This document shows, one piece after another, positions 17,140 through 26,999 of a stretch of 64,000 nucleotides of DNA. The stretch's first letter is position 1, and the number at the start of each line of letters is the position of its first letter. The stretch lies in NCBI RefSeq assembly GCF_024298765.1, contig NZ_CP101212.1; one strand, 5' to 3'. The notes beneath the pieces are model-generated. The model saw only the letters and a program-made list of their open reading frames with translations, was not told where the DNA came from and ran no database searches. The position numbers and the translations under genes were made by a program. Source of the stretch: Escherichia coli. Lineage in GTDB: Bacteria; Pseudomonadota; Gammaproteobacteria; Enterobacterales; Enterobacteriaceae.

Positions 17140-17827
17140 TGCATCGCCTGTAAATTTTTAACTTGTCCTATTTTTGTCATTACCACGTATATACACATGT
17201 ATAACAATTCAGATATCGTTACCAGGATATGCCGCATCAGCGGCATGGAAGGCGGCACTCTGTTGTTTCATATGATACAGGAGTAAAACCGCCGAAGCCC
17301 GGCGTAAGCCGGTACTGATTGATAGATTTCACCTTACCCATCCCCAGCCCTGCCAGACCATACCCGCTTTCAGCCATGAGAGAGCTTCTGTGCGCGGTCG
17401 GAGTGGTCCCGACGAGGGTTTACCCGAAGTCGGGGCGTATCTCCGCGTTAGCGGGCCGTGAGGGCCGCTTACGAGCGTGTACTGAGAACTTCCAGCGAGA
17501 AGACTGACAGCGATGAAGATGTAGTTACAACATTCATAATTAAAAGCGACTCTGTTCCGGCCCGAAGGGCCGGGGCGGGGCCGCTTTTCAGTTATGAGGG
17601 AGGGGCTTTGTGGTTTCAGTTCTGCGCTGGTTCGGGGTTTTTCTGGAGGTTGGTTTTGTGTGTTGTAACTAAAGTGGCTCCGGTTGGGGCCCGCCGTTTA
17701 CGGTGGGAGGTGCATATCTGTCTGTCCACAGGACAGGCAGTGAATAGGTTTTCTTTTTAAATGAATGTAATTAAGTAGTTTAAAGGAGATATAAACAGGT
17801 GTTTAAAAGATACATTGCACCCTGTAA

Positions 17828-17865
17828 GGGGTCAGTTTGGATATCGAAAATTATTGTACGTTAAG
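17828..17865. repeat. Tn3-family terminal inverted repeat (tnpA-proximal)
   Basis: 38 bp, GGGG...TAAG; identical to the reverse complement of 26891-26928. Confidence 0.9.
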
Positions 17866-20838
17866 GCTGTTTTTTGACCTTTCGACTTTAGCTGGTCTTA
17901 GCCGACGAAACTTACCAGAAGCCGGTATCCGGTTGCTTTTCCAGATATAATCACCTGTCAGATTGATGTGTTCCCAGCCCAACGGCGACAAATGCGACAG
18001 CAGTTGCTCGTTGATCTTCACCCCTTTACGCTTCAGGGCATCGACCGCTCTTTCCATATAGACGGTATTCCACAGGGATATGGCAGCCGTCAGCAGCGTC
18101 AGTCCACTGGCGCGATAGCTCTGATTTTCCGGTTTTCTGTCCCTGATTTCTCCCAGTCGGTGCATAAATACCGCACGCGCCAGCGCGTTACGGGCTTCGC
18201 CTTTATTCAGCCCCGCCTGTACCCGCCGACGCAGAGCCGGGTCGCGGAACCAGTCGAGCATAAACAGGGTTCGCTCAATGCGGCCAATTTCTCTCAGTGC
18301 TTTGGCAAGTCCGTTTTGCTTGGGATAGCTGGCAAGCTTTTTCAGCATCAGGGATGCCGTCACGGTTCCCTGCTTTATCGAGGTTGCCAGACGCAGCACT
18401 TCACGCCAGTGGATTTCGATCTCTTTCAGATTCAGGCTGGTCGTTGATATCAGTGACTGAAGCGCCGGGTATTTCTCTGCTTTCCCTTTGATAAACAGTT
18501 TTTTGTCGTGGAGATCCCTGATTCGCGGACAGAACGCAAATCCCAACAGATGCATCAGGGCAAAGACATGATCGGTGAAACCAGCGGTATCGGTGTAATG
18601 TTCCCTGATTTCCAGGTCGCTTTCGTGGTACAGCAAGCCATCGAGAACATGGGTTGAATCCCTGACCCGACTGATTATGCAGGTGTAAAACGGGCTGTAT
18701 TGATCCGAAATATGGGTATAAAACTGACGTCCAGGCTCTTGCCCATATTTCGGGTTAACCTGCCCTGCGTAGCGGCCTGAGCTGCCGGTTCTGAAATTTT
18801 GTCCATCTGATGATGACGTTGTTCCGTCTCCCCAAAATGCCGCCAACGGTCTTTTCCCCTGCGCATTTACCAGCTCTGCAAGAGCGGCTGAATAGGTTTC
18901 GTCACGGATGTACCATGCCTGAATATCTTCGAGTGATGATTTGGTGCTCCCGGGGCAGGCTTCTGCCATTTTGGTCAGGCCAAGATTGATGCCATCCGCA
19001 AGAATGGTGGTGAGGAGCAAGCGGGTATCGGGACGGGTAATGTCATTTTTTATATGCGAAAAATGTCGGGTAAACGTCGTCCAGCTGTTTACCTCATCGA
19101 GAATTTCCGTGATTTTAGGTCGCGGTAGCATGCTGTAAACCAGCTCTGCCAGCGGTGAAACCTGCGCCGGAACGCAGTTATCCAGCGGAGAGACTTTTAC
19201 GCCCCTGTCGGATATTTCCACATCGGGCAGTTCACCAAGGGCAGCCATGGCATTGACCTCTTCAAGTCTGGACTGAAGCAGGGTCATACGGCTGGTAATG
19301 TACTCATGATAATCAGCAGATACGGGCAGTGGCAGTGCCGGTGTGAGTTTGTCAAAGTCCTTCTCGGGTATGAGGTAATCATCAAAATTTTTGTAGCGGC
19401 GCGAGCCTTTAACCCAGATATCCCCGGAGCGCAACGCCCCCTTAAGCTCGCTGAGTGCACAAAACTCATAGTACTGCCGGTCAATACCCACAGGTGTAAT
19501 CACCACCTTGCGCCAGCTTTCAGGGACAAACTCAAGCGGCGCTGCCGCCGGAACTTTACGTGACTGCTTCCGGTACATATCCTTGATCACAACCAGTGCA
19601 TCAGCCAGAGGTTGCGCTGCCGGGGTTGCGACTAACTGTAAAGCGGACAACATGCGTGGGGCATATTTCCGTAATGTGCTGTATTTCTCGGTAATAATAT
19701 GCAGCGGGTCAAAATTATTTTTTCTGGCGAGATGGCGTGTTTCATCCAGACTGGCGACAAATTCAGCCCATGGGAGTATGTTTTCTATTGCGAGCCAGGG
19801 ATCGCCACCGGAATCACGGGCATCAGACAGCGCCTGACCGACATCGATGTACTGCCTCAGTTTTGACTGGATCAGCTTTCCGGTCTGCTGAAGGCGCTCA
19901 GCCTGTGTTCGTTTGGCTTTGCTGAAAAGACTATTCAGCATTCGCTCATGCAGCTCAATCACTTCGTCTGTCAGTGTGGCTCTGGCTTCTTCCAGCACGC
20001 ACACCAGGATCGCATGACGCCGGGCAGCTGAAAATCGGGTCAAATCCCGGCTACTCATCTTTCGGCCTTCCCGCGCCAGTTTCAGCAACCGGTTCTGGTG
20101 AATGGTACGATCTATACCTTCAGGTAATGCCAGCGATTCAATGCTGCTGAGCCGATCAAGATGTTGCAGCACGTTCTTACCATTGATTTTACCCGGCGGT
20201 TGCAGAAGCCATGTCAGCCTGGAAGGCTGATTATCTGATGACTCAAGTAAATGATCCAGGGCATCCCTGTGAGCCGGAGTTAACGGGGCATTCAGGGTCT
20301 GAAATACGATTTTATCGCCGCCTGCCATGACTTCAGCACAGGTACGCTCCACGACATCAATCGCGGGGATTATCACGTTGTTCTGCCGGAGATAGACAAG
20401 TAACTCTTCGGCTAGGAGAATGCCTTTATCGGTGCGCGTCGCCATCGATAACAGGTGCGTAATACAGTCCTGCTGTATTTTGCCGGTGAACGCCTTTACG
20501 CCAAGATAGCGGTACAGTTCGGTTAAATGCTCACGCCGGGTCGTATCCCGGCCGGAAAGGTAAGCAGGCCAGAGATCCCCGGTAAGCTTTAGCCTGCTGG
20601 CGATATGCTTCAGCAGCGCATCAGAGGGAGAGATTTTTTTATCCGGGGCAAAGCCGACATTTTTCAGATAGCAAAGAAGGACGGCAAAACCAAAACGGCT
20701 GGCGGGTTTACGGTGAGCACTGATAAGCGCCAGATCATGCTCACTGAAATAGGCCATTCGGGTCAGCGTTAACTCATCGTCCGGTAATGCCAGTAATGAT
20801 TCTCTTTCCGACAGAGAAAGAATCTGCCTCCTTGCCAT
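17851..20838 (-). CDS. tnpA: Tn3-family transposase TnpA
   Basis: About 995 aa from MARRQILSLSERESLL; C-terminus overlaps the terminal IR as in Tn3-family elements. Confidence 0.9.
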   Translation of the reverse strand: MARRQILSLSERESLLALPDDELTLTRMAYFSEHDLALISAHRKPASRFGFAVLLCYLKNVGFAPDKKISPSDALLKHIASRLKLTGDLWPAYLSGRDTTRREHLTELYRYLGVKAFTGKIQQDCITHLLSMATRTDKGILLAEELLVYLRQNNVIIPAIDVVERTCAEVMAGGDKIVFQTLNAPLTPAHRDALDHLLESSDNQPSRLTWLLQPPGKINGKNVLQHLDRLSSIESLALPEGIDRTIHQNRLLKLAREGRKMSSRDLTRFSAARRHAILVCVLEEARATLTDEVIELHERMLNSLFSKAKRTQAERLQQTGKLIQSKLRQYIDVGQALSDARDSGGDPWLAIENILPWAEFVASLDETRHLARKNNFDPLHIITEKYSTLRKYAPRMLSALQLVATPAAQPLADALVVIKDMYRKQSRKVPAAAPLEFVPESWRKVVITPVGIDRQYYEFCALSELKGALRSGDIWVKGSRRYKNFDDYLIPEKDFDKLTPALPLPVSADYHEYITSRMTLLQSRLEEVNAMAALGELPDVEISDRGVKVSPLDNCVPAQVSPLAELVYSMLPRPKITEILDEVNSWTTFTRHFSHIKNDITRPDTRLLLTTILADGINLGLTKMAEACPGSTKSSLEDIQAWYIRDETYSAALAELVNAQGKRPLAAFWGDGTTSSSDGQNFRTGSSGRYAGQVNPKYGQEPGRQFYTHISDQYSPFYTCIISRVRDSTHVLDGLLYHESDLEIREHYTDTAGFTDHVFALMHLLGFAFCPRIRDLHDKKLFIKGKAEKYPALQSLISTTSLNLKEIEIHWREVLRLATSIKQGTVTASLMLKKLASYPKQNGLAKALREIGRIERTLFMLDWFRDPALRRRVQAGLNKGEARNALARAVFMHRLGEIRDRKPENQSYRASGLTLLTAAISLWNTVYMERAVDALKRKGVKINEQLLSHLSPLGWEHINLTGDYIWKSNRIPASGKFRRLRPAKVERSKNSLNVQ

Positions 20839-21003
20839 ATAGTTTTCCTCATAAATTATTCGATGCGTTATTTTTAACAAAAATGGTTATCGCATAAGGG
20901 TATACCCTGACACCATAATCTAAACGTGACGGCACACAATGAACGACATAGCCTATATGCGATAGATTAAATGCAATAACCTAAATGCGGTAATGCGGTG
21001 AAA

Positions 21004-26184: not shown

Positions 26185-26606
26185 CCTCGCGCATACAACC
26201 GGGCAGTGATGTGATTGTCTGCGCTGAAATGGACGAACAGTGGGGCTACGTCGGTGCTAAATCACGTCAGCGCTGGCTGTTTTACGCGTATGACAGGATA
26301 CGGAGGACAGTTGTGGCGCACGTTTTCGGTGAACGCACTCTGGCCACACTGGAGCGTCTTCTGAGCCTGCTGTCACCCTTTGACGTGGTGATATGGATGA
26401 CGGATGGCTGGCCGCTGTATGAATCCCGCCTGAAGGGAAAGCTGCACGTAATCAGCAAGCGATATACGCAGCGAATTGAGCGGCATAACCTGAATCTGAG
26501 GCAGCACCTGGCACGGCTGGGACGGAAGTCGCTGTCGTTCTCAAAATCGGTGGAGCTGCATGACAAAGTCATCGGGCATTATCTGAACATAAAACACTAT
26601 CAATAA
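26103..26606 (+). CDS. insB: IS1 InsB
   Basis: 167 aa. Confidence 0.9.
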
Positions 26607-26890
26607 GTTGGAGTCATTACCCGCATGATTCAGCAGATAAATCCTTGAAAGCAGGTACTCAGCCCTCAGTGAACAGAATAAGTCAGCGTAATGTACTTTA
26701 GTGCTGACCACGTGCTCTGTATGATACAGAATCTATCTACTATAAACGAAAATACAGCACGATCAATGCTCACACTCTATATGGGACGTTCGTACCTGGA
26801 CATGATTATCTGTGTTCAATGTCCCCGCATGACCGTCTTAACATCCAGAATATTACGTTTCCAAAAAAACCAGAAATGATAAAAAATGAG

Positions 26891-26928
26891 CTTAACGTAC
26901 AATAATTTTCGATATCCAAACTGACCCC
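26891..26928. repeat. Tn3-family terminal inverted repeat (distal)
   Basis: Reverse complement identical to 17828-17865. Confidence 0.9.
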
Positions 26929-26999
26929 TGTAAGGCTGGCGCCTGGCGCTTTATGACATGAACGGTTGTAACCTTATGGGGAAGTCCATTGCAGTTAAA

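Follow-up and report, generated by a model that had tools for sequence, protein, structure and literature searches.

A resolvase-defective Tn3-family transposon with an ArsR/ArsP-family gene pair in the IncFII replication region of an Escherichia coli plasmid

What kind of mobile element has come to lie in the replication region of an IncFII replicon, and what would its arrival mean for the plasmid? This question is raised by a 64,000-nucleotide stretch of the Escherichia coli contig NZ_CP101212.1 (assembly GCF_024298765.1; hereafter the window), in which a first-pass annotation had described an intact, probably recent Tn3-family transposon with a minimal arsR/arsP cargo inside the presumed replication origin (oriR). 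The whole element spans positions 17828-26928 (9,101 bp). Taken together, the evidence points with good confidence to a 6.4-kb Tn3-family backbone that contains an intact transposase gene (tnpA), a presumed resolution site (res), a dead resolvase gene (tnpR), a divergent ArsR/ArsP-family gene pair, and a copy of IS1, and that later received an IS66-family insertion sequence (IS).

Structure of the transposon

The element is bounded by two inverted repeats (IRs) that match exactly over 38 bp, with GGGGTCAGTTTGGATATCGAAAATTATTGTACGTTAAG at 17828-17865 on the plus strand (the left, tnpA-proximal IR) and its reverse complement at 26891-26928 (the right IR, minus strand). The IR ends read GGGGTCAG...ACGTTAAG and start with GGGG, as expected of Tn3-family IRs, and no further copies with up to four mismatches were found within the window. 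Directly outside the IRs, TGTAA occurs at 17823-17827 and 26929-26933, a 5-bp, AT-rich target site duplication of the Tn3-family type. The same flanks are joined in plasmid pCREC-544_1 (NZ_CP024827.1), where TGTAA occurs just once in the empty site ...CACCCTGTAAGGCTGGCGCC..., which otherwise matches the joined flanks of the window without a difference. Because perfect IRs and a 5-bp AT-rich duplication are combined with a matching empty site, we attribute the element to TnpA-mediated transposition into the plasmid. It is a genuine transposition product rather than a chance repeat, and its repeats, duplication, and coordinates had been given correctly from the outset.

The tnpA gene (17851-20838, minus strand) is full length and encodes a DDE transposase of 995 aa, the large size (~1000 aa) expected of the Tn3 type. 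In agreement with the initial family assignment, TnpA matched NF033527 with 1129.5 bits (cutoff 500) over profile positions 2-954 of 954 and the Tn4430 transposase structure 7QD8 with E=1e-213, and PF01526 and PF13700 were found on relatives in the TnpA cluster. The tnpA DNA had 0 mismatches to the copy in plasmid pVM01 (NC_010409.1, 85307-91701). The element had been set apart from Tn3, Tn21, and Tn1721 on first inspection, and the distinction held: the closest transposase with an element name belongs to the TnAs3 family (55% identity), and all relatives closer than TnAs3 are annotated merely as "Tn3 family transposase". Neither annotation nor the searchable literature, which was queried with the features of the element, its protein accessions, its IR sequence, and pVM01 together with Tn3, yielded a name for it. 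ISEc63, a further candidate, was dropped: papers set it in blaTEM, blaKPC, and mcr-9 contexts (the sequences were not compared), and it is further disfavoured by the NCBI pipeline, which labels the transposase just "Tn3 family". Transposases 77-78% identical to TnpA are encoded by Cardinium endosymbionts of insects, an unexpected host range for a transposon family of enterobacterial plasmids.

Divergent from tnpA, and separated from it by a 167-bp spacer (20839-21005), lies a serine resolvase pseudogene, tnpR (21006-21410, plus strand), which was delimited by tblastn with the intact 211-aa TnpR of a Klebsiella variicola plasmid. Relative to that protein, codons 9 and 28 of tnpR are in-frame stops, codons 73-145 (73 codons) are deleted, and a separate deletion removes four more codons. 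The stop at codon 9 falls within the YLRASTEDQ motif, which we take to hold the catalytic serine of the resolvase. The spacer, ~92% identical to that of the K. variicola relative with the intact tnpR, is presumed to be res; a res-like region is thus kept beside a broken resolvase gene. Because relatives with the same IR have intact tnpR genes, we regard the element as a resolvase-defective derivative that still belongs to the Tn3 family. By analogy with established Tn3-family biology, TnpA would form a cointegrate through replicative transposition. Since tnpR is dead, the cointegrate would have to be resolved by the host, through RecA-dependent recombination of the duplicated element, or in trans by a related resolvase that recognizes the retained res-like region.

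Two further ISs are nested in the element. An IS66-family IS of 2699 bp (22373-25071, minus strand; tnpA 24341-25018, tnpB 23994-24341, tnpC 22403-23974) splits the permease gene of the cargo and is flanked by an exact 8-bp duplication, GATTAAGC, at 22365-22372 and 25072-25079. Copies 100% identical to it occur elsewhere in E. coli, and it is missing from the pVM01 copy of the transposon. A 768-bp IS1 (25854-26621, plus strand), recognized by its terminal repeats and its insA/insB genes, lies 46 bp downstream of arsR. No target duplication was found at IS1, where the flanking 9-mers GCTGCATCG and CGCATGATT differ, and we therefore read it as the result of an adjacent deletion or an IS1-mediated rearrangement. 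The chromosomal orthologues of the cargo consist of the two-gene pair only, so possibly no cargo gene was lost next to IS1. Nested IS DNA makes up ~3.5 kb of the element, which has lost the function of two of the four genes it originally had. The description as "intact" therefore fails, given that tnpR is a pseudogene, that the permease gene is split by an IS flanked by 8-bp repeats, and that IS1, lacking a duplication, abuts arsR.

The ArsR/ArsP-family cargo

The permease gene is present as two fragments on the minus strand. The C-terminal fragment (21538-22372), of the ArsP_1 family, aligns with the intact pVM01 permease WP_001089729.1 up to the IS66 junction, and the N-terminal fragment (25072-25378) carries a TPFCSCS motif. 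The intact pVM01 protein (377 aa) matched PF03773 (ArsP_1) at 6.7e-53, and TPFCSCS is invariant among the orthologues, in line with the PF03773 fold and the conserved cysteine pair in an N-terminal membrane segment that are expected of ArsP. ArsP reportedly needs its cysteine pair. The divergent arsR gene (25484-25807, plus strand) is intact and encodes a 107-aa ArsR/SmtB-family repressor that matched NF033788 with 63 bits, above the cutoff. Its closest solved relative is Acidithiobacillus AfArsR (PDB 6J05); the vicinal pair C91-C92 (25754-25759) aligns with Cys95-Cys96 of AfArsR, and the third ligand, Cys102, has no counterpart. The divergent promoter region contains two 25-bp direct repeats (25405-25429 and 25442-25466), each with an ATTTC-N10-GAAAT dyad, which are likely to be ArsR operators.

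The chromosomal setting of the orthologues bears on their role. Divergent ArsR/permease pairs adjoin arsRBC in Escherichia fergusonii (ArsR 92% and permease 85% identical) and arsR-arsD-arsA-acr3 in Aeromonas veronii (ArsR 84% and permease 71% identical), so that linkage to ars genes is found both in the transposon, through its divergent ArsR, and in the chromosomes. The same two-cysteine arrangement lets Shewanella SpArsR respond to methylarsenite (MAs(III)) and not to arsenite (PMC11868830), and the permease Campylobacter jejuni ArsP expels MAs(III) and trivalent roxarsone from the cell (PMC6205960). Judging from the genomic context and the ArsR cysteine motif, the cargo most likely senses and exports trivalent organoarsenicals. 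The label "arsR/arsP" given at first reading is thus reasonable at the family level, with a divergent ArsR-family regulator, a PF03773 permease, a supporting context, and a putative substrate, but the cargo is not minimal, as it is interspersed with the nested IS DNA. It is also non-functional in the window copy, where the permease is split.

Two observations weigh against an organoarsenical substrate: the permease matched NCBIfam models only below threshold, with the SO_0444 Cu/Zn efflux transporter at 116 bits (cutoff 300) ahead of SaoE at 88 bits (cutoff 325), and every homologue in a large protein database is named simply "permease". An export system for Cu/Zn or another thiophilic metal would accord with the identity of the top match, with a central loop of the permease that is rich in Cys-Cys pairs, and with the breadth of PF03773, which is labelled "predicted permease". 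However, both scores lie far under their cutoffs, the orthologous pairs stand beside ars operons in two genera, and the C-terminal cysteine pair of ArsR is of the AfArsR/SpArsR type. We therefore consider metal efflux doubtful, though a serious alternative to organoarsenical export.

The IncFII origin as insertion target

On the minus strand, the flanks of the transposon read finO, hok/sok, copB, CopA, tap, repA, a DnaA box, the transposon, an AT-rich stretch, a CPBP protease gene, and pemIK. The IncFII initiator gene repA (29646-30503, minus strand) is intact; its product matched TIGR03474 with 579.9 bits and is identical to WP_000774297.1 of pCREC-544_1. The CopA RNA was identified at 31063-31151 (RF00042, 93.6 bits). 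Beyond it, the sok antitoxin RNA (31955-32113) and the AS-pc02 antisense RNA (32566-32751; Rfam, 182 bits) were also found, and the FII control and hok/sok regions are intact. Based on sequence comparison, these flanks are an IncFII (R1/R100-type) replicon that forms part of a ColV-type F plasmid.

The DnaA box TTATCCACA lies at 27000-27008 (minus strand). The duplication follows 66 bp downstream of it, and beyond the transposon comes the AT-rich stretch (~17745-17822), matching the first estimate that the insertion stands about 70 bp beyond the box and before the AT-rich DNA. The context of the box, GACGGGGAATTTTGCTTATCCACATTTAAC, is identical to oriR DnaA-box1 of plasmid R1 as printed in PMC5883639, where oriR1 is described as a 188-bp unit and DnaA is reported to bind its box only with RepA bound immediately downstream. 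With an IncFII repA, CopA control, a DnaA box ~180 bp from the repA stop when ISEc22 (described below) is left out, and an AT-rich region, the target has the components of an IncFII oriR. The sequence and the comparison with R1 place the repA-proximal part of oriR, with the DnaA box, at 26934-27018 (minus strand) and the distal AT-rich part at 17725-17822 (minus strand; boundary approximate); the two parts are contiguous in pCREC-544_1. By homology to R1, the insertion would thus lie inside the 188-bp oriR and split it. A point against this placement is that the boundary of the unit was transferred from R1.

The transposon was not the only insertion. A second IS66-family element, ISEc22 (2454 bp; 27075-29528, minus strand; annotated in pG12a), occupies the spacer between repA and oriR and is flanked by the 8-bp duplication CCAGAAGG at 27067-27074 and 29529-29536. 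We searched 72,556 PLSDB plasmids and 5,426 complete E. coli genomes. One PLSDB plasmid, pG12a (NZ_CP129273.1; from chicken liver, typed IncFIB+IncFIC), had the identical ISEc22 insertion and no transposon in oriR, while no plasmid or genome searched had the junction between the transposon and oriR over 80% or more of the query. Since pG12a has ISEc22 and lacks the oriR transposon, ISEc22 likely came first and the transposon followed. With the two inserts taken out in silico, each together with one of its duplication copies, the FII region was 100.000% identical to pCREC-544_1 over 5,024 bp, so the insertions are recent and nothing has decayed since. The early reading of a clean, recent transposition into an IncFII oriR is upheld by the 5-bp duplication, the empty site, and these identical flanks. 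Its claim that the insertion splits the origin holds by homology, from the position between the box and the AT-rich end. ISEc22, however, had already parted the origin from repA, and the replicon was probably disabled before the transposon arrived.

RepA of R1 acts in cis, and the spacer between repA and oriR (CIS) matters for this action. The FII origin is split in two and no longer adjoins its cis-acting initiator, and by analogy with R1 it has almost certainly lost its activity. The plasmid would then rely on another replicon, probably a RepFIB outside the window, as pVM01, pCREC-544_1, and pG12a are all typed IncFIB+IncFIC(FII). Replication from RepFIB would leave the FII origin free to be hit twice. 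Two points weigh against this account: the loss of function is inferred from the R1 literature only, and no second replicon was found inside the 64-kb window, which leaves the reliance on RepFIB to the typing of the relatives. The opposite possibility is that the plasmid still uses its FII origin despite both insertions, for example with RepA acting on just one half of it, either the one with the DnaA box or the distal one. The intact and undecayed repA, copA, and whole control region would suit such use, and pG12a tolerates ISEc22 at the same place. Yet 9.1 kb now part the DnaA-box region from the AT-rich part and 2.45 kb part oriR from the cis-acting repA, the absence of decay is equally explained by recent events, and the relatives are multi-replicon plasmids (IncFIB+IncFIC). 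A working FII origin is thus very unlikely. A second and weaker reading is that two independent hits in the 250-bp interval between repA and oriR reflect selection for silencing FII in multi-replicon ColV plasmids.

The remainder of the window includes the tra region from ~33.6 kb onward. A salmochelin cluster, iroBCDEN, extends over 3189-12747, as judged from the sizes and order of open reading frames (ORFs), and a plasmid-borne DAHP synthase gene lies near it (13613-14647; AroFGH family, TIGR00034, 420 bits); together they mark a ColV-type virulence plasmid. A second IS1 (14841-15608), in opposite orientation to the one in the transposon, adjoins pemK. At the equivalent place in pG12a an IS1B joins a Tn21-type mer region, whereas the window has the DAHP synthase and iro region. 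At 1366-2001 lies a truncated IS481-family transposase ORF of 211 aa, which covers only the C-terminal half of the profile.

Distribution and relatives of the element

The 6.4-kb form of the element, with the dead tnpR and IS1 and without the IS66-family IS, was found at 99.6-100% identity in plasmids of E. coli, Salmonella enterica, and E. albertii. A total of 137 PLSDB records hold at least 80% of the segment from tnpA through the tnpR remnant to the permease gene, contrary to the rarity implied at first. The pVM01 copy shares the IRs, tnpA, the tnpR lesions, arsR, the permease, and the IS1 junctions with the window; its backbone showed 0 mismatches and one 1-bp gap in each of two aligned blocks. 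The window copy differs from the pVM01 form in the IS66-family element within the permease gene and in its oriR site. In six other copies that were compared, the res and tnpR-remnant sequences were exactly the same as in the window, the right IS1 junction was common to all six, and the left junction to five. Because these copies share the tnpR lesions and most of the IS1 junctions, we conclude that the resolvase-defective, IS1-bearing form is the one that is spreading.

The first-pass annotation had suggested a search for the same element with other flanks, and such copies were found. Compared with TGTAA on the ColV-type F plasmid of the window, the duplications were TTGTA in pVM01 (IncFIB/IncFIC), TGTAT in pN18S0645-2 (IncX1), and TATCT in p4M8F (IncHI). 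Clean copies in unrelated contexts with different 5-bp repeats show that the element has moved repeatedly. A P1-like phage-plasmid also holds a copy. Against a history of simple transposition throughout, two of the eight copies examined (loci L009 and L012) are without matching duplications, and the flanks of a further copy (L011) differ at one base. These three copies are probably rearranged, and the mismatched duplications mean that not every copy arrived by simple transposition.

More distant relatives carry the same transposition module with other cargo. The K. variicola plasmid NZ_CP103422.1 has a left IR identical to that of the window, divergent tnpA and tnpR, and a complete 211-aa TnpR. 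The relatives with intact tnpR, which occur on K. variicola, K. michiganensis, and Citrobacter plasmids, have DNA identities of ~94% in tnpA and ~92% in res, and they differ in their cargo, which includes LysR regulators, hydrolases, and oxidoreductases. In the ColE1-type plasmid pKPN1482-5 of K. pneumoniae (NZ_CP020845.1, 5757-9510 + 1-1370), a 5.1-kb relative has frmR in place of the arsR/permease pair, one identical IR, another with 1 mismatch, and the duplication CTTAA. From these sequences, the elements appear to be a small transposon family sharing one transposition module. Many plasmids also have isolated 39-48-bp matches to the IR (~90-100%) without the rest of the element, such as the 96-kb Yersinia pestis plasmid NC_017169.1 (54772-54810); such matches could be solo IRs or remnants, or could belong to related elements.

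The number of copies bears directly on whether the window holds a Tn3-family transposon that is intact and had not been seen before, with an arsR/arsP cargo both minimal and functional. Its perfect IRs, clean duplication, and full-length tnpA would fit that description, as would the lack of an element name in annotation and the searchable literature. However, "intact" and "minimal" are already refuted by the tnpR lesions and the nested IS DNA (a tnpR pseudogene, a permease split by an IS66-family element, and IS1), and identical copies of the backbone occur in well over 100 public plasmids, which makes such an element highly improbable. Mis-joining of repeats during assembly, for which the two IS1 copies and two IS66-family elements of the window would offer material, was rejected as next to impossible, because the transposon and both IS66-family elements, which make up three of the four inserts, have exact duplications of their own and excise cleanly in silico to leave exactly the known sequence, the two IS66-family elements share only ~72% identity, and the junctions of the IS1 without duplication recur in other copies.

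The locus is accordingly a mosaic of nested mobile elements of an ordinary sort. The element on which it is built already occurs in many public plasmids and represents no new type, and the significance of the locus reaches little beyond plasmid bookkeeping. Two aspects are of mild interest. First, the FII origin is doubly disabled while repA and copA remain typable; as a practical caveat, replicon typing that scores repA/copA would still call the plasmid FII-positive despite its split origin. Second, a common, livestock-associated transposon carries a plausible organoarsenical module. This candidate for organoarsenical resistance is frequent in isolates from food animals and has an intact copy in pVM01, and no characterisation of it was found in the literature. 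A broader proposal is that it constitutes an uncharacterised module for sensing and exporting MAs(III) and reduced roxarsone, spread by a resolvase-less Tn3-family element through livestock-associated Enterobacteriaceae plasmids (ColV, IncX1, IncHI, and P1-like phage-plasmids), possibly under selection by arsenical feed additives. We offer this proposal tentatively.

Compared with characterised arsenical systems, the window permease belongs to the same Pfam family as C. jejuni ArsP (PF03773) and has the conserved TPFCSCS motif. It differs from C. jejuni ArsP in an extra cysteine-rich central loop and in its disrupted gene, and the likeness is one of family and motif only. The window ArsR resembles the MAs(III)-selective SpArsR in having a vicinal cysteine pair, aligned to Cys95/96 of AfArsR, and no third cysteine.

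The replicon itself has a parallel in the F plasmid, whose RepFIC is interrupted by Tn1000 (gamma-delta), another Tn3-family element. As would apply in the window, a Tn3-family element there inactivates one replicon and the multi-replicon IncF plasmid survives on another. The stepwise dismantling of the IncFII replicon, by ISEc22 and then by the Tn3-family element, fits this known pattern, in which an IncF plasmid with several replicons loses one of them. The two cases differ in the transposon and in the replicon component that was hit, as the window combines a split origin with a second IS in the spacer between repA and oriR.

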